A DNA stretch of 43,859 bases from a virus (lineage: Duplodnaviria > Heunggongvirae > Uroviricota > Caudoviricetes), in IMG/VR virus record IMGVR_UViG_2908567220_000006, positions 1-43,859 of that record; one strand, given 5' to 3'. Each line of letters opens with the position of its first letter. Position 1 is the first letter of the stretch. The notes beneath the pieces were generated by a model that did not search any database, was not told the origin of the DNA, and saw nothing but the letters and a program-made list of their open reading frames with translations. This document shows positions 1 to 43,859 of this stretch, piece after piece. A program made the position numbers and the translations under genes.

Positions 1-660
1 CTATCCTTCCTGGACTTTGGTAAGCGTCAGATTTCCGCAGAACACTGCGCCGGTGTCGATGTACATCTGGTTTGCATACACCAGTGGGTGATGTGCTGGC
101 GTATGACCGAAGATGAACAAATCGGCACCGGTTATCTCCGAGACAATACCGTCCTGCGCGTCGCTAACCCGTTCACGATTCCATATCACCATTTCTTCTG
201 GTACTGGCTTATCGAATGCGTATTCGTTGTGCGGGTAGTCTGCGTGACAGATGACGACCTTCTTATTGCCGGTAACCAGTTCGATAATCATCGGGAGGTT
301 GGTAATCTTTGGCAGAAGGTATTTGAGTTGCACATCCTGCTCAGAATCAAGTTGGTGCCACCATCCACCGCCGTTTGACATCCAATGTCCGAAACTTCCG
401 CCGTTGACCAGTGCATCCAGCATCATCTGCTCATGGTTGCCACGAACAGCTCGGAACCACGGCATAGTAATCAAATCCAGGCATTCGACGTTTTCAGCGC
501 CGCGGTCAACAAGGTCACCAACGGAAATAAGTAAATCGCGCGCCGGGTCGAATGAAACTTTGTCGAGTTCGTTCATCAGCAGCGTGTAGCACCCATGCAG
601 ATCGCCGACGACGAAGATATTGCACCAGTCAGCGCCATTGATGCGTTGATATAGGTTCAT
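1..660 (-). CDS. PPP-family serine/threonine protein phosphatase (lambda NinI/PP-lambda-like)
   Basis: Translation contains metallophosphatase signatures GDLHG, GDLVDRG and GNHE. Start taken at MNLYQRING (ATG 658-660), overlapping the upstream gene stop; the ORF-track 1..780 N-terminal extension is not used. Confidence 0.85.
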
Positions 661-1307
661 GCTGCACGCTCCCGCCCCTGGTTGTCTATTGGTGACACCG
701 GAGCATTGCTGAATGCATTTGTTAATCCGCCAATATCCAACTCGTATCCAGGGTGTAGTTGCACTGCCGGGTCTTCGCACTGATTACCCCAAACATCGAA
801 GCCATGAGACGACTGGCGGGCGAACAGTTCAATGCGAGAAACATCGCCTAACAATTGCACAAGTTTTTCACGAACGACATCTGGTTTTCTTGAATGCTCA
901 AGCCGCGGTGCGGTAAATGACTGAACGATCCCTGCATTAATGCGCGGAGGTAGTTTTCCCTTTACTGCAAACAGGCAATCTTCACTATTGGCGCGAGTCA
1001 TGTGTCCCATACCCATAACCAGTTTATCTGGTTGTCGACTACCACATTTTATCCACGTGAAGCCCTTCATGGTCATCAGACGGAATCCCCAGGCTTCAAC
1101 AACTTTTAGTGCTTCGAGTGGTTGTGTTGGCACCCACCACATGGCCAACAGACAGTTTTCATCGGCCAAATCCCACACAGGAAGGCGGCAGATATCCAGC
1201 ACACTCATAACCGGATATTTAAAACCGGCACCGCGATTACCATCTGCGGCTTTGTCCCGGTATACCCAGGGTGGATCTGCATAGATTAGTGTGTATTTCT
1301 TAGTCAT
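657..1307 (-). CDS. MT-A70 family DNA N6-adenine methyltransferase
   Basis: Catalytic DPPW motif (YADPPWVY) near the N-terminus, about 216 aa; stop overlaps the phosphatase start (ATGA). Confidence 0.8.
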
Positions 1308-1599
1308 AAACCACCCCGCAACATCCTATGCCGCTATAGTCGCCACGGCGAAGGCCGTTACCTTTTGTGATACATTGGTCCCTGCGAACCGCGATCCTTG
1401 CACGCTCAACATCACCAGAAGCAACATCCATACACTGAAGCCAAAGGTGGGCGGCAATGCGGAACTGCCCTTTTTTCTCTCTTTCAATCGCGCGTTTTTC
1501 GATCTCTATCGCCGCAGGAGTAACGGCAACAACCTTTGAAGGGCTGCGCATTGAAACCTTGTTCATGTGATATTTTTCAAGTCGGCTTAACTTTCTCAC
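1300..1599 (-). CDS. hypothetical protein
   Basis: ORF in operon context with apparent GTG start; an alternative ATG (MNKVS) lies at about 1566. No recognisable motif. Confidence 0.35.
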   Translation of the reverse strand: MRKLSRLEKYHMNKVSMRSPSKVVAVTPAAIEIEKRAIEREKKGQFRIAAHLWLQCMDVASGDVERARIAVRRDQCITKGNGLRRGDYSGIGCCGVVYD

Positions 1600-1708
1600 T
1601 TAATCCAACCCTCTCTGAAAATTAATGCCAGCAGATAAAGCCATGCTGAAACAGAGGCCAGGAATAAGTACCATCCTGACCATTTGCTCCAGTGCCTTAG
1701 CAGCACAC

Positions 1709-1957
1709 TCATGCCGCGTTGCTCACGGGACGATATACACGTTGCTGAACAGGAGGTTTTTTACCCTGGAACTCTTCCGGACTTGCTGCCTGACGTTCAT
1801 CAAGCCAACGCTCAACTTCATCACGGTTCCATGCGCAGCGTTTATCGGTGATATACCAGCGTTTAGGAAATTCCCCTGCGCGCTCCATACGATCGATAGT
1901 GCTCCATGACAGTGGCACCACCGCCAGGAGTTCCTTCTTACCTAATGCACCTTTCAT
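1709..1957 (-). CDS. AlpA-family transcriptional regulator / excisionase-like protein
   Basis: 82 aa with an AlpA/Vis/Xis-like HTH pattern (SWSTIDRMERAGEFPKRWYI...WNRDEVERWL). Confidence 0.7.
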   Translation of the reverse strand: MKGALGKKELLAVVPLSWSTIDRMERAGEFPKRWYITDKRCAWNRDEVERWLDERQAASPEEFQGKKPPVQQRVYRPVSNAA

Positions 1958-2006
1958 AAATACCTCTCTTGGTTGCAGTGCGGCGCGTGTGGCGCCGCGG
2001 TGGTGG

Positions 2007-3029
2007 TTACTCGAATTCTGGACGCATATCGTTAAGCGTCATCATGAATTTTTGGTGATATTCATCACCGAGCTTTTCAGCCATGGTGTTAATCTCATTT
2101 TCAGCGCGCTTGAACATCGTTTTTGCATCTTCAGCAGATGGATCCAGGCTATTAAGTATCGCGATGATATATTCTCGAGCTTCTTCTCGTTCTGAATCTG
2201 AAATTGGCGACAGGTGTTGACGCTCATCGTCAACTACGGAATATTCACCAGTGATAACAGCTGCGTTATCTTGGCTAAGTCCAGCTTCAGCGCGCTCATC
2301 CATAACAACAGCCTTCTGCATTTCAATAGAAACAGGAAGATATTTGAATAGTCGGCGAATTACTGTTTTTTTAGCCATCTCATCGAAGTGATCAACCCAT
2401 GGGCCACTGCTACCGGCTTTGCTCAGTGCACGAACTTTCTCAATGTCTGCCCGGCTCATAACTTCAAATTGGACTCCGCCATCTTTCAGTCGTGCAACGG
2501 CGTAAACGTGCGTTAATTCTCCTCGGTCACCTGTTTCGCAAGGTAAATGCTCGAGCGTTTCTTCCAGGCCGTATGAGTAGCTGAATTTGTCGTTTGTATG
2601 TACGGTACGAGCCGAGATACTCAGGATCTGCCCAGAGCGGCGGGCAAGGTCAATCATTCCGCGATAGCCGATAATCAGCTGTGCTTCTGTAGATACGGTT
2701 TCCCATCTTCCATTTACTTTCTGGCGTTTGTCGAACGGTATCAGGTAAGCGTGTCCAAGAGCTCCGCCTGGTTCAAGACCCAATTGGGCACATTGCATAA
2801 TTGCCCCCAGGAAGCTGGCTTGGTCGCATGATGCAAGTTTTGGAACCTTTCGGATCTCTGTGGTTGCTATGCGCGCCAGACGGTCTGCTGTCATGTGCTT
2901 TGGAAGTGCCAAAGCCATCTGAGCTTTAATTTTTGGGTCTGCCAGAAGTCCGGCCAGAGTTGTTGGTTTCTCATTATGATGTGCAACTTGGTTACCGGTA
3001 GCCGCTGCCTTAAGTGCATTGATAGACAT
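2007..3029 (-). CDS. recT: RecT-family single-strand annealing recombinase
   Basis: 340 aa; position directly downstream of a YqaJ exonuclease gene; RecT-like core sequence with acidic C-terminal tail. Confidence 0.8.
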   Translation of the reverse strand: MSINALKAAATGNQVAHHNEKPTTLAGLLADPKIKAQMALALPKHMTADRLARIATTEIRKVPKLASCDQASFLGAIMQCAQLGLEPGGALGHAYLIPFDKRQKVNGRWETVSTEAQLIIGYRGMIDLARRSGQILSISARTVHTNDKFSYSYGLEETLEHLPCETGDRGELTHVYAVARLKDGGVQFEVMSRADIEKVRALSKAGSSGPWVDHFDEMAKKTVIRRLFKYLPVSIEMQKAVVMDERAEAGLSQDNAAVITGEYSVVDDERQHLSPISDSEREEAREYIIAILNSLDPSAEDAKTMFKRAENEINTMAEKLGDEYHQKFMMTLNDMRPEFE

Positions 3030-3038
3030 TTTTTCTCC

Positions 3039-3938
3039 TTACTTCATTCTGAAGACGCGTTGTGTCGTTGTTGTTTTGAATTTTTCGAATAACTCAGGGT
3101 GTACTGACTGGAATAGCTTCTGGTCGAATCTGTTGCTGATCTGAGATTTCCATGTGCAGAGCGGCTTTCCGTCCAGGGTCAGGACTGAGTGCTCTTGCAT
3201 GTACATCTTCAGCTTCTCTTCTGATATAGCTATTTCTTCTTCCAGTGATTTTCTGCGTGACTTCATGTCTCGTAGATCGTTGAATAGTGCGAGTGCCTTT
3301 CCGTCAGCCTCGATACTTGTCCCGGCATCTTTCTCAAACATCAGCGATATATCGCTTACGCTGGTAGCTTCCGGCGGGTTAAGATTTTTCACTCGGTCCC
3401 AGAAAGCGATTTCTTTTTCTAAGATTGCCTGGATAGTTTCTTCATCACGCTCAACCCGATAGATTCGGAAGTCGTCGCCACCGATAAGCACACCGAAAAC
3501 GCATACCTGTTTGTTTGTAACCATCAACCCGTGCATGGCCTGGGCCGTGTAATGCACAGGAATTGCATCTGTCTGGATTTCTCCCCATTCTTTGGCTTTG
3601 AACGGACTAACTGTTTTGATCTCAATGTTCTCGCCTGACGCTGCTTCTGCATCGATCTCAGCTGCAATAAAATCGTAATCACGGTGGATATAGCGGTTTC
3701 CGCGATGAACGATTTCCATCCCTGTTTCCTCAGAAAGCAGGTCTATTACGTATGGCTCCATACGCTGGCCACGCGTGAAAACTTTCTGCTTGCTTGGGTC
3801 TACTGGTTTGACACGTGGCTGTACCTTATCCAGATAAACCTCAAGCGGTGTGCGCCATGGGCTAATTCCAAGAATCCCTGCAACATCGCTTCCTCCGATG
3901 TATTTTGTTCTATCCATGATTCCAGCGTTCCGCATCAT
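3039..3938 (-). CDS. YqaJ-type viral recombinase exonuclease
   Basis: 299 aa; N-terminal motif KYIGGSDVAGILGISPWRTPLEVY typical of YqaJ/lambda-Exo-like nucleases; paired with RecT. Confidence 0.8.
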   Translation of the reverse strand: MMRNAGIMDRTKYIGGSDVAGILGISPWRTPLEVYLDKVQPRVKPVDPSKQKVFTRGQRMEPYVIDLLSEETGMEIVHRGNRYIHRDYDFIAAEIDAEAASGENIEIKTVSPFKAKEWGEIQTDAIPVHYTAQAMHGLMVTNKQVCVFGVLIGGDDFRIYRVERDEETIQAILEKEIAFWDRVKNLNPPEATSVSDISLMFEKDAGTSIEADGKALALFNDLRDMKSRRKSLEEEIAISEEKLKMYMQEHSVLTLDGKPLCTWKSQISNRFDQKLFQSVHPELFEKFKTTTTQRVFRMK

Positions 3939-4234
3939 GCCGCGTCCCTCTGTCCATCAAGCTGATCAGCCAGATCCCAGCGGGCGATAATTGCCATTGC
4001 CTCGCGCCGGTAGGAATCCATCAGTTCTTCGAACTCTGGACTGTCTTTAGCGGCCTCCAGTACTTCCTGGCGAACGCCTTTACCTGTTACAGCGTCGAAA
4101 GTTGAGGCTAGTTGATGAAGCCGGATGCTCTCGATCAGTTCAACTTGTCGGTCATATAGCTGTTCTGACAGGCGGTAGTCCTTGTCGAATGCCAGCATGA
4201 TTTTTTGAAGATTTTTCTGCTGATTAACGTTCAT
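3935..4234 (-). CDS. hypothetical early protein
   Basis: Start taken at MNVNQQ, which has a GGGAGGG Shine-Dalgarno 5 nt upstream; overlaps the exonuclease start. Confidence 0.5.
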   Translation of the reverse strand: MNVNQQKNLQKIMLAFDKDYRLSEQLYDRQVELIESIRLHQLASTFDAVTGKGVRQEVLEAAKDSPEFEELMDSYRREAMAIIARWDLADQLDGQRDAA

Positions 4235-4236
4235 TA

Positions 4237-4389
4237 TCAGCCCTCCCATATCTCGTTATCGTTGGCTACATCGCGAGCTTCTTTGCTGACGAAAGCCCAC
4301 TTAATGCCTTCCTGTAAGGTGCGGAACTTCCAGCTCATGAATCCGCATGCAGTAACGCAGCACCAACCGTTGATGATTTTCCACTGCAT
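4237..4389 (-). CDS. small Cys/Trp-rich hypothetical protein (50 aa)
   Basis: Own translation: MQWKIINGWCCVTACGFMSWKF...; first gene downstream of the putative leftward early promoter, the position occupied by kil/cIII-like genes in lambdoid phages. Below the ORF-track size cutoff. Confidence 0.3.
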   Translation of the reverse strand: MQWKIINGWCCVTACGFMSWKFRTLQEGIKWAFVSKEARDVANDNEIWEG

Positions 4390-4408: not shown

Positions 4409-4485
4409 TTACCGTTGAGGTAATGATTATGCGTATTTGGTTTGGTGTCAATAGATATGAGTTAAAAAAATTACCCTTTAGGTAA
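4409..4485. promoter_or_regulatory. oL-like operator pair (TTACC-N5-GGTAA at 4409-4423 and 4471-4485) with leftward early promoter
   Basis: Two perfect copies of the 15-bp palindrome between the repressor gene 3' end and the first early-left gene. Confidence 0.55.
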
Positions 4486-4493
4486 TCAAACAG

Positions 4494-4520
4494 GCAATAA
4501 AAAAGCCGCCAGAAGGCGGC
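4494..4520 (-). terminator. intrinsic terminator downstream of repressor gene
   Basis: GCCGCC-AGAA-GGCGGC hairpin followed on the minus strand by a T-run, about 25 bp after the repressor stop. Confidence 0.5.
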
Positions 4521-4542
4521 TTACTTACTGAAAAATATGATT

Positions 4543-5127
4543 TTATTGTTTGTTTTTTTCGTTCTGGTTGATGACAAATTCAATGTAACTTTCGATCTTT
4601 GCTTTCTCGGTTTCGGGTAACAATGCGTAGCGCGAGCGGTCATAGTTGATGGTCGCAGGGTCGTGCGGGTGAATCAGTAATTCATAGCCGTGACGCCCGA
4701 ATGCGGATGCAACATTCTCCAGGGTGGAAATGGAAACGCTGACCTCATTGTTTAACAGGCGGCTGATTGTCACCTGGGAGACGCCAGATGCGCGGTGAAG
4801 TTTTCCCTGTGTTGAAAGGTCGCGGCTTTCGCTCATCCAGCGTTCCAGGTTGTGAGCCGCCAGTTGACCAATGTCGCTTGGTCCGACAGGCTGAAAACCT
4901 TCCTGAGAAAGCGAGCGATCGATATCAAGCCAGTTACGGGGTTTATTGGCGGCAGCTTCGATTTTTCGCGCAACCTGGTCGCCGATAACCTTCTTGCCAA
5001 GAGCCCAGCGGTTTACCAGATTTGCCTGAGTTCCAAGTTTTTCTGCCATCCGCGTCTGAACACCATTGAATTCACGGTCGATCAAGTCGTTGAGATTTTG
5101 CCTGCGGACGTCCTGGATACTTTTCAT
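4543..5127 (-). CDS. CI-like phage repressor with two tandem XRE-type HTH domains
   Basis: 194 aa; two HTH-like segments (GVQTRMAEKLGTQANLVNRW and LHRASGVSQVTISRLLNNE); divergent from a Cro-like gene; no S24 peptidase motif is apparent. Confidence 0.7.
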   Translation of the reverse strand: MKSIQDVRRQNLNDLIDREFNGVQTRMAEKLGTQANLVNRWALGKKVIGDQVARKIEAAANKPRNWLDIDRSLSQEGFQPVGPSDIGQLAAHNLERWMSESRDLSTQGKLHRASGVSQVTISRLLNNEVSVSISTLENVASAFGRHGYELLIHPHDPATINYDRSRYALLPETEKAKIESYIEFVINQNEKNKQ

Positions 5128-5182: not shown

Positions 5183-5245
5183 TTACCCAACAGGTAAATG
5201 CACCTCATGGGTAACTATCCTTGATTTTTGTTACCTTATAGGTGA
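5183..5245. promoter_or_regulatory. oR-like operator cluster with divergent pRM-like and pR-like promoters
   Basis: Three palindrome copies in the 154-bp repressor-cro intergenic region: 5183-5197 perfect, 5200-5214 GCACC..GGTAA, 5231-5245 TTACC..GGTGA. Candidate pR: -35 TTGATT 5221-5226, -10 GAATAT 5244-5249. Confidence 0.6.
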
Positions 5246-5557: not shown

Positions 5558-5663
5558 ATATCTATTCGTACCTCAAAGGTAATAAAAAACCAAATATGGT
5601 TGATCTTTTTTTTTGTGTCAGCACAAAATAACCGTAATCCCAATACTAATAACAGGGCTTACC

Positions 5664-7514: not shown

Positions 7515-7591
7515 TTACCTGTTAGGTAATAAAATATTCTAAAATCTATTGATTTCGTGTCTTATGTGGTTTTTAATTACCTTAGAGGTAA
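7515..7591. promoter_or_regulatory. two palindrome copies (7515-7529, 7577-7591) upstream of nin-like operon
   Basis: Perfect TTACC-N5-GGTAA copies; the second overlaps the Shine-Dalgarno of the gene starting at 7595. Confidence 0.5.
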
Positions 7592-12181: not shown

Positions 12182-12214
12182 TTACCACAACGGTAACTAT
12201 TACCACGGTGGTTA
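12182..12214. promoter_or_regulatory. palindrome pair immediately upstream of small terminase start
   Basis: 12182-12196 perfect TTACCacaacGGTAA; 12200-12214 TTACCacggtGGTTA overlapping the SD. Confidence 0.5.
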
Positions 12215-15326: not shown

Positions 15327-15341
15327 TTACCTGAAAGGTAA
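15327..15341. promoter_or_regulatory. palindrome copy upstream of portal/head operon
   Basis: Perfect TTACCtgaaaGGTAA about 90 bp upstream of the first ORF of the head operon. Confidence 0.5.
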
Positions 15342-32779: not shown

Positions 32780-32794
32780 TTACCTTTAAGGTAA
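32780..32794. promoter_or_regulatory. palindrome copy at promoter of two-gene accessory operon
   Basis: Perfect TTACCtttaaGGTAA 43 bp upstream of the 108-aa gene start. Confidence 0.5.
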
Positions 32795-33827: not shown

Positions 33828-33842
33828 TTACCGCAAAGGTAA
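33828..33842. promoter_or_regulatory. palindrome copy upstream of Bro-N antirepressor
   Basis: Perfect TTACCgcaaaGGTAA. Confidence 0.45.
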
Positions 33843-34207: not shown

Positions 34208-34222
34208 TCACCTGAAAGGTAA
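34208..34222. promoter_or_regulatory. near-perfect palindrome copy (TCACC-N5-GGTAA) in divergent region before tailspike
   Basis: One mismatch; lies between the LexA box and the tailspike promoter region. Confidence 0.4.
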
Positions 34223-34326: not shown

Positions 34327-37002
34327 ATGACGGTCTCAACCGAAGTTGACCACAACGAATACACTGGCAATGGTGTTACGACGACATTCCCTTACAAATT
34401 TAGGATCTTCAAAAAATCAGATCTGGTAGTACAGGTTGTTGACATTAACGAGAATATAAACGTACTGGTTCTTGATACAGATTACATCGTCACCGGAGCA
34501 GGAGGGTACAGCGGCGGTAATGTAATTCTCTCGAAGGCGTTGGCTAACGGTCATCAGATATCTATATCACGAGAACTACCAGCTACTCAGGAAACGGATT
34601 TACGTAATCAGGGTAAGTTCTTCGCTGAGGTACATGAGGATGCGTTCGACAAGTTGACCATGCTTATCCAGCAGTGCTTCAGCTTTCTACGCCTGTCCCT
34701 GCGCAAGCCCTCTTTCATCGCGAACTATTACGATGCGCTCAACAACCGCATTCGTAACCTGCGTGACCCGTCACAGGCGCAGGACGCAGCCACGAAGAAT
34801 TATGTTGATGGGCAGATCGTTGACAATACCAATGCCTGGAAAGCTGGTGATGACATTCTTGATCAGAAAATTGATAGCAATTTCCGAAGAACAATTCGGG
34901 TTCCTGAAAGTGATGTTGATATGGTTCCTACTATAGCTGCAAGAAAAAACTCGCTATTTGGGTGGAACAGCTCCAGTCAACCTGTCCCGATATTTTCTAT
35001 GACGGAAACTGCTGACCTGGCTATTAAGCTAGCAAGCACTGAGATGGGATTGGGTGGCAACCTTGTTGGTATTTACGATGGACGACCGCCAGTTGTTGTT
35101 ACCAATACAGTAACAGATAAAATCAAGGATGGTGCAGCCGGCCTGCGTAAGGATTTCGGAGCTGTAGGTGACGGATACCACGACGATACCGCCGCTTTTA
35201 ATGACTGGTGGGAATGCCTCATGGACCTTCTCTATAAGCGCCGGGGTGTTGAGAGCGACGAAACTGCAGTGCCGTTTATGCTTCAGAAAGGGCCCAGACT
35301 TCATATCGAAAACGGCACATTTATTTATAACGGTCCCGGACTAAATATCACTGATACTGACGCATTTGTTTTTATCGCCGATGGTGAGAGTTCGCTCGCT
35401 ACAAAAATTTTGCTTCCGGATGGTGTTTACTTATTCGATTTTGATAAAAACCCGGTTCATGCGCACCTTGCCAATCTGACCATTCATGGTGGGCTTGGTG
35501 CAGTGCGTTATAAATCTAAACAGCGTTCAACTAACAGCATTCATCTTTTTGAAAATCTACGACTGTCTCGATATAAAGAATGCGGTATTAGTAATAATGC
35601 TATCGATATGCCGTATTTTCGTGTCAGTGGCTCAATGTTTTACGGGGACCCGACAAAACAAACCGTTGGTGTTTGCGTTTCAGGATATGCCGCCGGTGGT
35701 TTTATTCGTGATTCCGTTTTCAGTGATAACCGATACGGCATTAAGTTGGCTGTAGGGAAAAACAGCGTCGAGAGCAACGGCCCTGCAACTCCATACCTTA
35801 TTCAGTGCAATGATTTTTACCGTACTGGTAATCGCGGAGGCTCTGCATCATACGACATCTGGATTGAGCCGGGGGTAACCAGCAATAATGCCGGTCGCGG
35901 TATAAAACTGAGTCAAAACAAGTTCGGACAGGAGAACTTAAAATCTCCGGATACGCATATTTTGATTGCTGATGCCGCTGTATCCGGTAGTGGCTTAGGG
36001 CTAAATGGCGACAGGGCTCACGTTGAAACGCAGTCGGCAGGTTTTGTTTCTGGGGTGAGGTTTGACGGCAATGATGTTAACTCAAACAGCGCCGGGTATA
36101 TTGCGCCGTTTATCCGGACATTTACACCTAACGTGGGGAATTTCAGGTTTTCTGATTTGTACGACAACGATATGCCATCACGCATCATTGAGTTTGCAGG
36201 TGGTATTACTCAGTCACAAATAGGGAACCTGGGGCGTACAAATGTGTTTGACGCGTCTATGTGCCTGGCATTGCAGAAAGGTGTTGAACCTAAGCTGCTA
36301 TCCAACATGAATGACGTCTTCCGCCTGATTGATCCTCTGAATTATTACGTGGGGCACCCGCAGTCAACACTGGTTCCTGTTGGGGGCCAGCAGGATGATT
36401 TTGAATTACTTTACTCCGGTCCTACGTCTACTATCGGACTTAGTAACGCCAGCCGGTCATCGCTCAATAATTCATATGGGGGAATATTTGAAGCAGCTGA
36501 AATCACAATGAATACAGACGAAGGTCGCGCAGTTGCGTCTATAAGTGGTGGGCTGGCGGGGCGTAAACACTGGATTGATTTTGATATTCGTCGAGGCTCT
36601 TCAAATCCCGTAGGCTCTGTTGTGATGGAGGTCATGGACCCTACAGGGGTAACCATTCTGTTTCGTAGAATAATCCTGGTTGATACCATTACTCGATGGC
36701 AAAAAGTCGTTCTCCCGTACATTCCTAATGTAAACGGAGATATTATCGTCCGGTTCCGCTCAAATGTTTATGTGGCTGGATCAGCTACGAATTTTGTTAT
36801 TGGCAACCTCAATGTTTACCGAAACGAAACGCCAGTGAATACGGGGCATAATAGCGGTCTGCGTATGCAGTGGGATCTGCAACACGCAGTGAAAGGCGCA
36901 CGACATGAATGGTATGATAATGCAGGTAATCTGAGAGCTAAAAATGGTGCGCCGACGTCTGCCACCGATGGCGTAATTATCAGTGCAAACCCGGTAGTGT
37001 GA
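34327..37002 (+). CDS. tailspike protein (N-terminal particle-binding domain plus beta-helix-like enzymatic domain)
   Basis: 891 aa; N-terminus MTVSTEVDHNEYTGNGVTTTFPYKFRIF typical of podovirus tailspike/fibre adaptor domains; long Gly/Asn/Ser-rich beta-rich body. Confidence 0.75.
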   Translation: MTVSTEVDHNEYTGNGVTTTFPYKFRIFKKSDLVVQVVDINENINVLVLDTDYIVTGAGGYSGGNVILSKALANGHQISISRELPATQETDLRNQGKFFAEVHEDAFDKLTMLIQQCFSFLRLSLRKPSFIANYYDALNNRIRNLRDPSQAQDAATKNYVDGQIVDNTNAWKAGDDILDQKIDSNFRRTIRVPESDVDMVPTIAARKNSLFGWNSSSQPVPIFSMTETADLAIKLASTEMGLGGNLVGIYDGRPPVVVTNTVTDKIKDGAAGLRKDFGAVGDGYHDDTAAFNDWWECLMDLLYKRRGVESDETAVPFMLQKGPRLHIENGTFIYNGPGLNITDTDAFVFIADGESSLATKILLPDGVYLFDFDKNPVHAHLANLTIHGGLGAVRYKSKQRSTNSIHLFENLRLSRYKECGISNNAIDMPYFRVSGSMFYGDPTKQTVGVCVSGYAAGGFIRDSVFSDNRYGIKLAVGKNSVESNGPATPYLIQCNDFYRTGNRGGSASYDIWIEPGVTSNNAGRGIKLSQNKFGQENLKSPDTHILIADAAVSGSGLGLNGDRAHVETQSAGFVSGVRFDGNDVNSNSAGYIAPFIRTFTPNVGNFRFSDLYDNDMPSRIIEFAGGITQSQIGNLGRTNVFDASMCLALQKGVEPKLLSNMNDVFRLIDPLNYYVGHPQSTLVPVGGQQDDFELLYSGPTSTIGLSNASRSSLNNSYGGIFEAAEITMNTDEGRAVASISGGLAGRKHWIDFDIRRGSSNPVGSVVMEVMDPTGVTILFRRIILVDTITRWQKVVLPYIPNVNGDIIVRFRSNVYVAGSATNFVIGNLNVYRNETPVNTGHNSGLRMQWDLQHAVKGARHEWYDNAGNLRAKNGAPTSATDGVIISANPVV

Positions 37003-39186: not shown

Positions 39187-39360
39187 CATGGCATTTTTCA
39201 TGGTACTGATTTCCGGTGACGGTATATAAAACGGTACTAAAAAAATGAAGTTTTGGAAAAATGTTATCACTCAATTGGTTATGGCTGCCGTAAATAATTG
39301 AGTGGGAATGATTTAACGTCTGGCAACAGCCTGCACGTAAAAGCAGTAAAGTACCTCTAA

Positions 39361-39390
39361 GCCCGCGTAACTGCGGGCTTTTTTGTTTTT
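39361..39390 (+). terminator. intrinsic terminator after lysis cassette
   Basis: GCCCGC-GTAACT-GCGGGC followed by TTTTTTGTTTTT. Confidence 0.65.
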
Positions 39391-39618
39391 GTGTCTGGCA
39401 CTTTCTGGCAGCTGTTAGCAACGGGAAGCACGGTTTTTTCAATGGAATTTTTGATGGTACTCTCTGATTTCGAATTCAGGTTTGAAAAAGTACCATGTGA
39501 TAAATTTCGGTTGAGTTATGGTATTTGTTTTTTTATAACTCAATTAAAAACAGATAGTTAAACAACTTTTCTGAATTTTTTACAACATGGTATTTTTGAT
39601 AAAGGAAAACAATAAACC

Positions 39619-40809
39619 ATGTTGACTGACACCAGGCTGCGTCACCTTAAGCCGAAGGAGAAACTCTATAAAGTTAATGACCGTGATGGTCTGTATGTTG
39701 CGGTCACTCCGGCTGGAACTATTTCATTTCGTTATAACTATTCAATAAACGGAAGACAGGAGACTGTTACTTTTGGCCGCTATGGTGTTGGAGGGATCAC
39801 GCTTGCAGAAGCGCGTGAACGGCTCAATGAAGCCAAAAAAATGGTTGCCAGTGGAATATCGCCTGCGAGGGAAAAAGCCAGAGATAAAGCGCGTATTAAA
39901 GATGCGGAGACTTTTGGTGCGTGGACTGAGAAATGGTTACGCGGTTATCAAATGGCTGAATCGACGCGTGATATGCGGCGTTCGGTATATCAAAGGGAGT
40001 TGAAGTCAAAATTTGCCCAGCAGAAACTTAGTGAGATTACACATGAAGACTTACGCGCATTAACCGATAACATTGTCGAGAGAGGGGCACCAGCGACAGC
40101 TGTACACGCTAGAGAGATTGTATTGCAAGTCTATCGCTGGGCTATTGAGCGCGGTCAGAAGGTGGAGAATCCTGCTGATCTGGTACGGCCTGCAAGCATA
40201 GCGAAATTTGAGCCTCGAGACAGGGCATTGACGCCAGTTGAAATTGGTCTGATGTATCGGTACATGGAACGGGTAGGAACGACGCCATCAATCAGAGCAG
40301 CGGTTAAACTTTTGCTGTTAACGATGGTACGTAAAAGTGAGCTTACTAACGCAACCTGGAACGAGATCAATTTTAGTGAGGCATTATGGACGATACCAAA
40401 GGAAAGGATGAAACGACGTAATCCACATTTGGTTTTTCTTTCCAGACAGGCAATGGATATTATGATTGCTCTCAAAACCTTTGCCGGTAGCTCTGATTTT
40501 ATCCTTCCTTCGCGGTACGATTCCGATGCGCCAATGAGTAGCGCTACTTTAAACCGGGTTTTGACACTGACGTATCGCCTGGCTCAGAAAGAAGGGGAGT
40601 TGTTGCCTAAGTTTGGTCCCCATGACTTACGGCGTACAGCCAGCACCTTGCTACATGAGGCCGGGTACAATACTGACTGGATTGAGAAGAGCCTTGCCCA
40701 TGAACAAAAAGGGGTACGAGCTGTTTATAACAAGGCAGAATATCGTGAGCAGAGGGCTGAGATGCTACAAGATTGGGCGAATATGATTGATGAATGGACT
40801 AGTAAGTAG
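39619..40809 (+). CDS. int: tyrosine integrase (P4-type)
   Basis: 396 aa; P4-like N-terminal arm-binding region (LYKVNDRDGLYVAVTPAGTISFRYNYSINGRQ) and C-terminal catalytic region (HDLRRTAST...Y). Confidence 0.85.
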   Translation: MLTDTRLRHLKPKEKLYKVNDRDGLYVAVTPAGTISFRYNYSINGRQETVTFGRYGVGGITLAEARERLNEAKKMVASGISPAREKARDKARIKDAETFGAWTEKWLRGYQMAESTRDMRRSVYQRELKSKFAQQKLSEITHEDLRALTDNIVERGAPATAVHAREIVLQVYRWAIERGQKVENPADLVRPASIAKFEPRDRALTPVEIGLMYRYMERVGTTPSIRAAVKLLLLTMVRKSELTNATWNEINFSEALWTIPKERMKRRNPHLVFLSRQAMDIMIALKTFAGSSDFILPSRYDSDAPMSSATLNRVLTLTYRLAQKEGELLPKFGPHDLRRTASTLLHEAGYNTDWIEKSLAHEQKGVRAVYNKAEYREQRAEMLQDWANMIDEWTSK

Positions 40810-40944
40810 TTAATAATCAGTAAGTTAAGTGGTTGTGCTTCTTTTTTCTACGGTAGGAGAGCAATTTTAGCCGCTAAAATTTACTGAATCTTTACTGGTT
40901 TTATCTGGATTGCATAAAAAGGAAAAATAAAAGTGGATTTGCCC

Positions 40945-41850
40945 CTATATTTCCAGACATCTGTTATCACTTAACCCATTACAAGCCCGCTGCCGCAGAT
41001 ATTCCCGTGGCGAGCGATAACCCAGCGCACTATGCGGATGCCATTCGTTATAATGCTCGAACGCCTCTGCAAGGTTCTTTGCTGCCGTTAACCCGTCTGG
41101 TTTGGGCATGATACTGATGTAGTCACGCTTTATCGTTTTCACGAAGCTCTCTGCTATTCCGTTACTCTCCGGACTCCGCACCGCCGTGTTCTTCGGTTCA
41201 AGTCCCAACATCCGGGCGAACTGGCGTGTTTCATTAGCCCGGTAGCATGAACCATTATCCGTCAGCCACTCCACTGGAGACGACGGAAGATCGTTGCCGA
41301 AGCGGCGTTCCACCGCTCCCAGCATGACGTCCTGTACTGTTTCACTGTTGAAGCCGCCGGTAGTGACCGCCCAGTGCAGTGCCTCACGATCACAGCAGTC
41401 CAGCGCGAACGTGACACGCAGTCTCTCTCCGTTATCACAGCAGAACTCGAACCCGTCAGAGCACCATCGCTGATTGCTTTCTTTCACGGCCACTCTGCCT
41501 GTATGTGCCCGTTTCGATGGCGGTACAGCAGGTTTTCGCTCAAGCAACAGCGCATTCTGGCGCATGATCCGGTAAACACGTTTGGCATTGATCGCAGGCA
41601 TACCATCAAGTTCTGCCTGTCTGCGAAGCAGCGCCCATACCCGACGATAACCATACGTGGGCAGCTCTCCGATAACATGGTGTATACGGAGAAGCACATC
41701 CGTATCATCAGTGTGACGACTGCGGCGGCCATCCATCCAGTCATCGGTTCGTCTGAGAATGACGTGCAACTGCGCACGCGACACCCGGAGACAACGGCTG
41801 ACTAAGCTTACTCCCCATCCCCGGGCAATAAGGGCGCGTGCGCTATCCAC
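40945..41850 (-). CDS. insD: IS2 transposase OrfB (InsD)
   Basis: 301 aa, recognised as IS2 OrfB from memory; expressed by frameshift from OrfA. Confidence 0.85.
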
Positions 41851-42218
41851 TTTTTTGCCCGTCCATATTCAACGGCTTCTTTGAGGAGTTCATTTTCCAT
41901 CGTTTTCTTGCCGAGCAGGCGCTGGAGTTCTTTAATCTGCTTCATGGCGGCAGCAAGTTCAGAGGCAGGAACAACCTGTTCTCCGGCGGCGACAGCAGTA
42001 AGACTTCCTTCCTGGTATTGCTTACGCCAGAGAAATAACTGGCTGGCTGCTACACCATGTTGCCGGGCAACGAGGGAGACCGTCATCCCCGGTTCAAAGC
42101 TCTGCTGAACAATTGCGATCTTTTCCTGTGTGGTACGCCGTCTGCGTTTCTCCGGCCCTAAGACATCAATCATCTGTTCTCCAATGACTAGTCTAAAAAC
42201 TAGTATTAAGACTATCAC
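41808..42218 (-). CDS. insC: IS2 transposase OrfA (InsC)
   Basis: HTH-containing OrfA; overlaps OrfB in a different frame. Confidence 0.85.
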
Positions 42219-42295
42219 TTAAATAAGTGATATTGGTTGTCTGGAGATTCAGGGGGCCAGTCTAAAAAGTGCCTGAGTTGTCTGTAATTATACAA

Positions 42296-42898
42296 TGGAT
42301 GAATCAATACCCTAAGACCGGCTGGCTATTGCTGTGTATCTATATTGCACTCGGTGTAGTTCGTCACAGAGTAATTAATGCTGAATCTGGAAGTGTATTT
42401 CGTGGACTACTCAATCTTAGGAAGCGCCGGCTAGAGCAAATGCTGACACAGCCATATTCGAATAAAAATGCGGTCCGTCTGGCAAAGCGTGAGCTTCGTC
42501 AGCGCAGCCTTTATCGGCTCACAGGCTTGTATAATTATCGGCTGCAGGATTTGGCTGTAATAATGTGTGATCGTTATGGGTTGCGGGCTGGTTATCTCAA
42601 GCCGTGGCGTAACTGGCTCGAAGAACGGGATGGACGGATTGTGTTCAACAGGAAATGGCATTGTTTTCGCTGGCGTCTTTTTCTGGTAGGTCAGATTGTA
42701 AACACAGTTCTACTAATATTATTCATTATGTATATAGTTTCTCATTCTTCGGCCGAAATGATCGCACCGCTTATGTTACTCTTCATGCTTGTATGGTGGT
42801 TTCCTTGGCTAATGATCACCTCGGTACCTACCCCTAGGTGGACTCGCGAAATGGAAGTCTATCTTGAGAAATTTAACGCTGAACAGACCATGGTTTAA
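42296..42898 (+). CDS. hypothetical membrane protein (N-terminal TM, basic soluble domain, two C-terminal TM helices)
   Basis: Start at ATG 42296 (MDESIP) rather than the ORF-track start at 42269, which lies in the IS2 target duplication; IS2 sits 27 bp upstream. Confidence 0.5.
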   Translation, partial: WMNQYPKTGWLLLCIYIALGVVRHRVINAESGSVFRGLLNLRKRRLEQMLTQPYSNKNAVRLAKRELRQRSLYRLTGLYNYRLQDLAVIMCDRYGLRAGYLKPWRNWLEERDGRIVFNRKWHCFRWRLFLVGQIVNTVLLILFIMYIVSHSSAEMIAPLMLLFMLVWWFPWLMITSVPTPRWTREMEVYLEKFNAEQTMV

Positions 42899-42945
42899 AC
42901 TGTTCTTTGTTACCATGCATTCAGAGTGAAGGTAATGACTCCAAC

Positions 42946-43449
42946 TTATTGATAGTGTTTTATGTTCAGATAATGCCCGATGACTTTGTCATGCAGCTCC
43001 ACCGATTTTGAAAACGACAGCGACTTCCGTCCCAGCCGTGCCAGGTGCTGCCTCAGATTCAGGTTATGCCGCTCAATTCGCTGCGTATATCGCTTGCTGA
43101 TTACGTGCAGCTTTCCCTTCAGGCGGGATTCATACAGCGGCCAGCCATCCGTCATCCATATCACCACGTCAAAGGGTGACAGCAGGCTCATAAGACGCCC
43201 CAGCGTCGCCATAGTGCGTTCACCGAATACGTGCGCAACAACCGTCTTCCGGAGACTGTCATACGCGTAAAACAGCCAGCGCTGGCGCGATTTAGCCCCG
43301 ACATAGCCCCACTGTTCGTCCATTTCCGCGCAGACGATGACGTCACTGCCCGGCTGTATGCGCGAGGTTACCGACTGCGGCCTGAGTTTTTTAAGTGACG
43401 TAAAATCGTGTTGAGGCCAACGCCCATAATGCGGGCTGTTGCCCGGCAT
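42946..43449 (-). CDS. insB: IS1 transposase InsB
   Basis: 167 aa, recognised as IS1 InsB. Confidence 0.85.
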
Positions 43450-43643
43450 CCAACGCCATTCATGGCCATATCAATGATTTTCTGGTGCGTACCGGGTTGA
43501 GAAGCGGTGTAAGTGAACTGCAGTTGCCATGTTTTACGGCAGTGAGAGCAGAGATAGCGCTGATGTCCGGCGGTGCTTTTGCCGTTACGCACCACCCCGT
43601 CAGTAGCTGAACAGGAGGGACAGCTGATAGAAACAGAAGCCAC
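43368..43643 (-). CDS. insA: IS1 InsA
   Basis: 91 aa, [43 protein letters not shown] recognised as IS1 InsA. Confidence 0.85.
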
Positions 43644-43698
43644 TGGAGCACCTCAAAAACACCATCATACACTAAATCAGTAAGTTGGCAGCATCACC

Positions 43699-43859
43699 GG
43701 AAGAATGGAAATAATATTAACGGTTTTAGTTTCTTGTTTGGTATTCAGTTGATCGGTTTGATAAACATCGGCGGCATGATCGTCAGCATTTGACTGGCAT
43801 CCTGCCAGAGTGAATGACGCTAACATTGCCACAGGCAGAAGACATTTTTTAAATTTCAT
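43699..43859 (-). pseudogene. lipoprotein gene truncated at its 3' end by IS1
   Basis: Starts at the window edge with MKFKKCLLPVAMLASFTLAGCQ (signal peptide and lipobox); the reading frame runs into the IS1 terminus. Confidence 0.45.

Follow-up and report, generated by a model that had tools for sequence, protein, structure and literature searches.

An orphan MT-A70 methyltransferase gene and a NinI-type phosphatase gene at the end of a prophage leftward operon are probably independent accessories brought together by cargo-slot exchange

Here, we describe the genes at positions 1-1307 of a 43,859-nucleotide stretch of Caudoviricetes DNA (IMG/VR record IMGVR_UViG_2908567220_000006; hereafter the window), which encode a predicted N6-adenine methyltransferase and a predicted serine/threonine phosphatase. 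Its sequence marks the window as a Uetakevirus prophage of the phiV10/epsilon15 type, integrated next to guaA. Its positions 1-1700 share 98.9% DNA identity with phage vB_EcoP_PAS61 (OQ921333) and 99.6% with E. coli chromosomal prophages (e.g., NZ_AP022222). The relatives have the order guaA, attL, int (+) and then, convergent with int, ppp, MT-A70, PerC-like gene, 38-aa ORF, AlpA, RecT, exonuclease and repressor; in PAS61 and the E. coli chromosomes the stop codons of int and ppp are 2 nt apart. This gene order suggests that the prophage's own integrase gene is located immediately left of window position 1. The gene at 39619-40809 encodes another integrase, is cut by IS elements and belongs to a different guaA-adjacent island. 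Because window position 1 falls on the ppp stop codon, the phosphatase gene is complete. The features of the locus, all on the minus strand, are as follows.

1 to 660, minus strand: ppp, gene of a 219-aa NinI/lambda-phosphatase-type Ser/Thr PPP-family metallophosphatase; it ends the leftward operon and is probably a swapped-in cargo cassette
657 to 660, minus strand: ATGA stop/start overlap of the MT-A70 gene and ppp, read directly from the sequence; left junction of the proposed cassette swap
657 to 1307, minus strand: gene of an orphan MT-A70 (beta-class, DPPW) N6-adenine methyltransferase, 216 aa; core aa 1-187 and lineage-specific C-terminal tail aa 188-216
1300 to 1599, minus strand: gene of a PerC/ANR-like small protein, 99 aa from GTG 1599 or 88 aa from ATG 1566
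1596 to 1712, minus strand: 38-aa hydrophobic ORF, homologue of phiV10 gp35/epsilon15 gp32, with 4-nt overlaps with the AlpA-like and PerC-like genes
1709 to 1957, minus strand: gene of an AlpA-family excisionase/regulator (Pfam Phage_AlpA 3e-05; PHROG 66 excisionase)
2007 to 3029, minus strand: RecT gene (Pfam RecT 2.6e-57)
3039 to 3938, minus strand: YqaJ-type exonuclease gene (Pfam YqaJ 2.7e-23)
4409 to 4522, minus strand: predicted early-left promoter, operator-like palindromes and repressor-gene terminator (consensus scan, repeats)

An earlier note on this DNA had placed the two genes at the distal end of a leftward early operon that also carries exo, recT and an AlpA-like gene. The three companions are indeed on the same strand, and the placement is well supported by the promoter and terminator sites, the gene overlaps and the comparison with relatives. 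A consensus scan revealed a promoter-like site, TTGACA-17-AATCAT, at 4451-4423 of the minus strand (-35 at 4451-4446, -10 at 4428-4423), with operator-like TTACC-N5-GGTAA palindromes on either side of it (4409-4423 and 4471-4485). The same palindrome is also present in the repressor (cI)/cro intergenic region and occurs 15 times against 0.87 expected. A predicted intrinsic terminator (4522-4503) follows the repressor gene (4543-5127, two HTH domains), while no minus-strand terminator-like site was found from 4490 down to position 1, nor was one found after ppp in a relative. We infer that the operon is transcribed from the predicted early-left promoter. No sigma-70-like minus-strand promoter was found within positions 1-1700 or at the equivalent E. 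coli locus, and transcription of ppp in the lysogen in the manner of a moron is therefore without support.

Each gene from AlpA to ppp overlaps its successor, by ATGA at 1709-1712 (AlpA and the small ORF, whose phiV10 and epsilon15 homologues are annotated as membrane protein), by GTGA at 1596-1599 (small ORF and PerC-like gene) and by ATGACTAA at 1300-1307, where the stop of the PerC-like gene and the start of the methyltransferase gene share 8 nt. The ORF at 3935-4249 overlaps the exonuclease gene as well, and the operon overlaps other than that of MT-A70 and ppp span 4-8 nt. Direct reading of the sequence confirmed the ATGA overlap that had been reported at 657-660: these positions read tcat on the plus strand, with the ppp ATG at 660-658 and the methyltransferase TGA at 659-657. 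A Shine-Dalgarno-like GGGAG precedes the ppp ATG by 8 nt. The junction thus combines a stop/start overlap with a putative ribosome-binding site inside the upstream gene, which is the sequence criterion for a coupled pair, and translational coupling is predicted.

Profile searches upheld both domain assignments of the earlier note, a PPP-family phosphatase and an MT-A70 methyltransferase with DPPW. The ppp product matched Pfam Metallophos (PF00149) with 58.7 bits (cut-off 21.5; E=1.4e-15). Its alignment with lambda phosphatase 1G5B (E=9e-100) spans residues 1-217 and has no gaps. Its motifs GDLHG, GDLVDRG and GNHE are all there, and in the 1G5B alignment every metal-binding or catalytic residue is kept (D20, H22, D49, R53, R73, N75, H76, H139 and H186 in lambda numbering). 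The protein further matched PHROG 246 (NinI-like, 9e-108) and NCBIfam PRK11439 (3e-79, under the model's cut-off). With NCBIfam scores of 266 and 222 bits, below the curated cut-offs of 326 and 332, it is no equivalog of PrpA or PrpB. It is 100% identical to the PAS61 phosphatase, and phosphatases of this type are common in phages (1456 of 50,697 records). 1G5B/NinI is a Mn-dependent phosphoprotein phosphatase. The ppp product would likewise be a Mn-dependent phosphoprotein phosphatase that dephosphorylates host phosphoproteins in lytic growth, and dephosphorylation of host proteins is its most likely activity as judged by these homologies. Our literature search found nothing specific on the biological role of NinI or on an anti-defence role of a NinI-type phosphatase.

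The methyltransferase, with DPPW at aa 11-14, matched MT-A70 (PF05063) over the whole model (1-172/172; E=7e-22, 78.6 bits against a cut-off of 23.9). PADLOC identified it as MTase_II (7e-77), which was the sole PADLOC match at the locus; there was none for ppp. Neither Pfam nor PADLOC found a cognate restriction endonuclease or nuclease gene beside it, where its neighbours are the PerC-like gene and ppp, and we therefore class it as an orphan. Among proteins of solved structure, ciliate MTA1 and human METTL3 are nearest to it in both sequence and fold, the fold being judged from its AlphaFold model (pLDDT 70). METTL3-METTL14 and MTA1c work as heteromers in which METTL3 and MTA1 are the catalytic subunits. 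The C-terminal tail, modelled at low confidence, is conserved in phiV10 and Tyrion. Values of dN/dS are 0.07-0.09 for the methyltransferase gene and about 0.13 for ppp (against phi80 ppp); both genes are thus under purifying selection (0.07-0.13 against distant homologues, with dS near saturation). By these measures both are functional; they probably act independently of each other.

The two genes appear to be neighbours because a variable cargo slot separates the methyltransferase gene from the convergent int. The methyltransferase gene, by contrast with the slot content, is backbone-linked in this phage group. Identity between the window and phiV10 runs to ...GCAGCATGAA and breaks right after ATGA(A), beyond which the sequences are unrelated; on the other side it is restored some 15-20 nt ahead of the int stop. 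In phiV10 the slot holds gp32, a 64-aa DUF1382 gene that begins at the same ATG as ppp. The phosphatase gene is thus an ORF-for-ORF replacement, and the ATGA overlap is therefore a property of the slot and not of the pair. The arrangement int-ppp-MT-PerC occurs in 143 of 5426 complete E. coli genomes (~2.6%), while most of the ~500 phiV10-type E. coli loci carry DUF1382 and a few carry Ant or a DGQHR-domain gene. Among the best 80 IMG/VR relatives, 17 have ppp and 47 have DUF1382, and the distance from the end of the methyltransferase gene to the end of int varies from 9 to 1273 bp. Overall, ppp is present in ~21-25% of the phiV10 group and DUF1382 in about three quarters of the E. coli relatives, and the methyltransferase gene is found about three times more often without ppp than with it. 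Still other small genes occupy the slot in epsilon15 and Tyrion. A tblastn search of the window gave no significant match to DUF1382, PNB-1 or the Tyrion gp30 and gp28 proteins.

The phosphatase gene also occurs on a second, diverged backbone. In contig L123, ppp is 97% identical to that of the window, with both junctions the same, while identity is 83% for the methyltransferase, 67% for the PerC-like gene, 77% for AlpA and 89% for int. It follows that ppp travels as a cassette, and the conserved flanks that it uses are the 3' tail of the methyltransferase gene on one side and the 3' end of int on the other. The GC profile showed no compositional break at the cassette. We propose that the ppp ORF took the place of the common DUF1382 ORF, between the ATGA start that both use and the last int codons, and that it spreads between diverged backbones via recombination in these flanks. 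The ATGA together with the upstream GGGAG would let any cargo of the slot be translated by ribosomes that finish the methyltransferase gene. The presence of the same cassette in the same slot of two diverged backbones could also reflect selection for a position next to the methyltransferase gene, and not just easy recombination.

A wider survey took in one locus from each of 40 other species whose methyltransferases share 62-90% identity with that of the window. Just one of these loci had a phosphatase homologue within 3 kb, and none had it directly beside the methyltransferase gene. The single case is a lambdoid nin region (NinB, MT-A70, ..., NinI, NinG) with the two genes about 860 bp apart; elsewhere, the methyltransferase gene follows ninB in P22-like nin regions or follows the lysis cassette. 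Window positions 1-1307 thus probably hold the last two genes of a repressor-controlled leftward operon, an MT-A70 and a NinI-type gene that are independent accessories and became adjacent through exchange in the cargo slot.

The nearest characterized relative of the methyltransferase is M.EcoPA8orf6770P of Stx2a phage PA8. The purified enzyme on its own is nearly inactive on DNA (GATC) in vitro; bound 1:1 to PNB-2, which is encoded by an overlapping gene upstream, it prefers 16S rRNA in 30S subunits and raises spontaneous induction (PMC10810198; Gong, Chakraborty & Koudelka 2023). M.EcoGV from an O104:H4 Stx phage, described as highly similar, methylates GATC in vivo when over-produced without PNB-2 (PMC10810198). 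Two further MT-A70 enzymes, p32 of Serratia phage BZS1 and M.EfaBMDam of Tn1549, are GATC-specific (PMC7556043). Over aa 1-187 the window methyltransferase is 83% identical to M.EcoPA8orf6770P, with unrelated tails, and it is 82% identical to the enzyme of O104:H4 phage P13374, which in turn is 99% identical to that of PA8. With the phiES15 homologue of BZS1 p32 the window enzyme shares 42% identity, a distance at which the GATC specificity of BZS1 p32 and M.EfaBMDam is not safely transferable. No PNB-2 homologue was found in the window by tblastn (nothing at E<=1), and the enzyme may therefore need another partner or have another substrate. The C-terminal 27 residues of the STEC type that were proposed for PNB-2 binding are likewise absent, as identity stops at residue 187. 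A 76-aa ORF of phage 06-3462 was tried as PNB-2 and discarded, since that phage lacks the terminator sequence given in the paper.

By analogy, the window methyltransferase is most likely a Dam-like GATC DNA enzyme made on induction, and an RNA target is a real possibility. We favour GATC because of the three literature anchors, the PA8-type loop combined with an unrelated tail, and the absence of PNB-2. Upon induction or infection, with the operon active, the enzyme would methylate the adenine of GATC sites in phage DNA; it may act on RNA too and affect induction like its Stx-phage relative. GATC occurs 158 times in the window against 170 expected, a neutral frequency that favours neither side. 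E. coli already methylates GATC through Dam. Since GATC methylation adds little restriction protection in a Dam-positive host, the anti-restriction role suggested in the earlier note is weakened, and we regard it as doubtful given that the nearest relatives with tested activity methylate GATC (Dam-like) or 16S rRNA (PMC10810198, PMC7556043).

All structural relatives of the enzyme (METTL3-METTL14, MTA1c) act as heteromers, an observation that weighs against our preferred reading. One could propose that the methyltransferase is mainly a 16S rRNA m6A enzyme that tunes spontaneous prophage induction, with the PerC-like protein as the partner in place of PNB-2. We consider this unlikely, though it is the alternative that fares best. 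It draws on the core identity to M.EcoPA8orf6770P with the same variable loop, on the requirement of the PA8 enzyme for an upstream-encoded partner before it prefers 16S rRNA in 30S subunits (PMC10810198), on the fold, nearest to the heteromeric METTL3 and MTA1, and on the recurrence of a PerC-like ORF, which 13 of the 40 species loci carry upstream and on the same strand, both in Uetakevirus-type backbones and in others. In three loci PerC is fused to a winged helix, the motif predicted for PNB-2. However, PNB-2 itself has neither a homologue in the window nor detectable similarity to the PerC-like family, and the tail that the authors linked to PNB-2 binding is replaced in the window enzyme. 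PerC-family proteins are transcription activators and not RNA binders according to family annotation, several relatives have other small ORFs between the PerC-like and methyltransferase genes, and the 16S rRNA site is unmapped in the source paper (PMC10810198).

The PerC-like gene (Pfam PerC 6e-07; PHROG 868) deserves attention beyond this question. Its 13 loci upstream of an MT-A70 gene cover at least two phage backbones; seven are Uetakevirus-type and six have other backbones, some with RusA downstream. As a lead from these gene orders, the recurrent PerC-like/MT-A70 arrangement points more credibly to a functional link than does the pairing with the phosphatase gene. A bolder proposal, that the two form a mobile two-gene module of several temperate-phage backbones in which the PerC-like protein would be a targeting or activating subunit comparable to PNB-2, strikes us as rather improbable; if true, it would assign a biochemical function to the PerC/Pch family, which is poorly understood. 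The idea that PNB-2 is a divergent PerC-like protein was tried and rejected (no BLASTP alignment, hhalign probability 0.1). The in-frame PerC-methyltransferase fusions P0001 and P0002 are rare and known from single contigs; we left them out as evidence because they are probably indels.

The earlier note had viewed the MT-A70 gene and ppp as a translationally coupled early package for host takeover or anti-restriction. Spelled out, the methyltransferase would protect phage DNA and the phosphatase would disarm host signalling or kinase-based defence. The ATGA overlap with its Shine-Dalgarno-like GGGAG and the position of both genes at the end of a repressor-controlled early operon agree with this view, as do the persistence of the pair in the 143 E. 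coli genomes and, with identical junctions, in the second backbone, and the ability of phage metallophosphoesterases to counter host defence (PMC12287305; a distant enzyme). Yet the same ATGA junction serves DUF1382 in about three quarters of the relatives, overlaps of 4 to 8 bases are usual throughout the operon, and ppp accompanies the methyltransferase gene in about one quarter of the group without wider linkage, the one phosphatase gene within 3 kb among the 40 other species loci being non-adjacent. NinI is usually found in nin regions without an MT-A70 gene, ppp lacks a PADLOC match, and enzymes that target GATC or rRNA, as the tested relatives do, would protect little against restriction where the host is Dam-positive (PMC10810198, PMC7556043). 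A functional package is thus very unlikely, and two independent accessory genes joined through the cargo slot remain our preferred reading. That either gene or both are now passengers in decay, without a present function, is hardly credible: lambda NinI, encoded in the nin region, is dispensable and listed among the nonessential genes (PMC10695390) and the slot content is highly variable, but both ORFs are intact with all catalytic motifs kept, dN/dS is 0.07-0.13 against distant homologues and near-identical copies are present in hundreds of genomes.

Both genes are ordinary accessory genes of well-known families, and their arrangement is already known, being annotated in the cultured phage PAS61 and in ~2.6% of complete E. 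coli genomes. The locus is of use in smaller ways. It offers a clean case of cargo exchange that is precise to the ORF, at a phage operon end where alternative genes reuse a shared ATGA, and it cautions that a stop/start overlap is no proof of functional partnership. The phiV10-type enzyme is also a natural variant of the Stx-phage "rRNA methyltransferase". As it lacks PNB-2 and has a different tail, it offers a direct control for the question of GATC-DNA versus rRNA as target.

Among known systems, PAS61 and the guaA-adjacent prophages of the NZ_AP022222 type are closest, with the same order of int and, convergent with it, ppp, MT-A70, PerC, small ORF and AlpA. Both genes are annotated there, as serine/threonine phosphatase and MT-A70/adenine methyltransferase, although the PAS61 paper does not discuss them. 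Nothing relevant differs at the locus; the upstream recombination genes are mosaic, and those of the window (epsilon15-type RecT and YqaJ exonuclease) are unlike those of the PAS61-type relatives. In phiV10, gp33 is 97% identical to the window methyltransferase and has the same operon and the same int-adjacent position, and the same ATGA overlap leads into DUF1382 rather than a phosphatase gene. Epsilon15 gp29 is 77% identical but without the C-terminal tail, and the slot cargo is a small membrane protein rather than the phosphatase.

The PA8 and M.EcoGV enzymes resemble the window methyltransferase in their DPPW core (82-83% identical over aa 1-187), in the variable loop shared by the PA8 enzyme, in their int-proximal position in a temperate coliphage and in the overlap with an upstream gene. 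They differ in the last 21-29 residues, which are unrelated between PA8 and the window, in the upstream gene, which encodes PNB-2 (143 aa, winged helix) in PA8 where the window has the PerC-like gene, and in the Sepvirinae backbone of PA8. BZS1 p32 and M.EfaBMDam are, like the window enzyme, phage- or transposon-borne orphans of the bacterial MT-A70 (beta-class) subgroup, and the MT-A70 gene is int-proximal in BZS1, HK639 and phiES15 as well. For the phosphatase, the closest known systems are lambda NinI (ORF221; 1G5B), a full-length ungapped homologue with 67% identity by tblastn, phi80 Ppp, whose gene has 79% DNA identity to ppp, and E. coli PrpA/PrpB. In lambda, phi80 and HK225, the phosphatase gene lies in the rightward nin region between ninE and ninG (ninG/rap in lambda and phi80), whereas in the window it is the final gene of the leftward operon and convergent with int.

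The space between the MT-A70 methyltransferase gene and the convergent integrase gene int holds variable cargo. Among the complete E. coli genomes H203, H221 and H225 and the 80 best IMG/VR relatives (L060-L139), this slot is 9 to 1273 bp long and mostly carries DUF1382; elsewhere it is occupied by the phosphatase, by an Ant antirepressor together with one hypothetical gene, or by a DGQHR-domain protein, the last a candidate defence gene solely by its domain name. The phosphatase cassette of the window recurs at the same ATGA junction in L123 (IMGVR_UViG_2571042753_000003, 3645-4301). Because the L123 phosphatase is 97% identical in amino acid sequence, while the genes flanking it are 67-89% identical to their window counterparts, sequence comparison indicates that the cassette was transferred between backbones through conserved flanks.

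On the other side of the methyltransferase gene, 13 of the MT-A70 loci from 40 other species carry a small PerC/ANR-like ORF upstream on the same strand, and no case of such an ORF downstream of or antisense to the gene was found among these 40 loci.

Loci with a PerC/ANR-like ORF:
Window, 1300-1599, minus strand
Loci from other species, L009-L012, L014, L016, L017, L025, L026, L029, L030, L033, L047

The gene order is shared by Uetakevirus-type and other backbones, some with RusA downstream, and in L025, L026 and L029 an N-terminal winged helix is fused to the PerC domain. The PerC-like and MT-A70 genes may form a two-gene module. Two rare proteins, P0001 (297 aa) and P0002 (263 aa), each from one contig, join the PerC-like protein in-frame with the methyltransferase; they are not established fusion proteins and probably arose by a deletion or by indels within the 8-nt overlap.

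The recombination module (2007-3938, minus strand) is mosaic. It encodes an epsilon15-type RecT (340 aa) and a YqaJ exonuclease (299 aa), whereas otherwise near-identical E. coli prophages (compared with L003, 7007-8706) have a shorter RecT and a PD-(D/E)XK nuclease; in phiV10, RecE and RecT are fused. The right end of the window (39300-43859) lies outside this prophage, whose own int is left of position 1, and matches a separate guaA-adjacent island of other E. coli.

Features of the right end:
39619-40809, second P4-type integrase, shortened (396 aa)
40945-42218, ORFs of an IS3-family element
42946-43643, IS1
43859, host lipoprotein-like gene, start only

The palindrome TTACC-N5-GGTAA occurs in 15 copies in the window (at most one mismatch), against 0.87 expected.

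TTACC-N5-GGTAA positions:
4409-4423, 4471-4485, 5183-5197, 5231-5245, 5568-5582, 7515-7529, 7577-7591
12182-12214, 15327-15341, 32780-32794, 33828-33842, 34208-34222, 35099-35113, 35817-35831

The predicted early-left promoter has a copy on either side, and the repressor/cro region contains several; about ten are far outside the immunity region, including in structural and late regions.

Enterobacter phage Tyrion (L007) offers a further arrangement, with two small winged-helix ORFs flanking its MT-A70 gene.

Winged-helix ORFs of Tyrion:
2284-2511 and 3145-3351, comprising gp30 (upstream, 11-nt overlap with the MT-A70 gene) and gp28 (downstream, ATGA overlap)

Sequence similarity of gp30 or gp28 to PNB-2, the winged-helix partner of the Stx-phage MT-A70 enzyme, was undetected; their position beside MT-A70 is nevertheless reminiscent of it. 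In L003 (3742-5660, a stretch reaching left of window position 1), int and the phosphatase gene ppp converge, and their stop codons are separated by 2 nt. Since this junction lacks an intrinsic terminator, transcription of the early-left operon should continue into int in the antisense direction. By analogy, such transcription may exert a control of integrase expression similar to that by sib in lambda.
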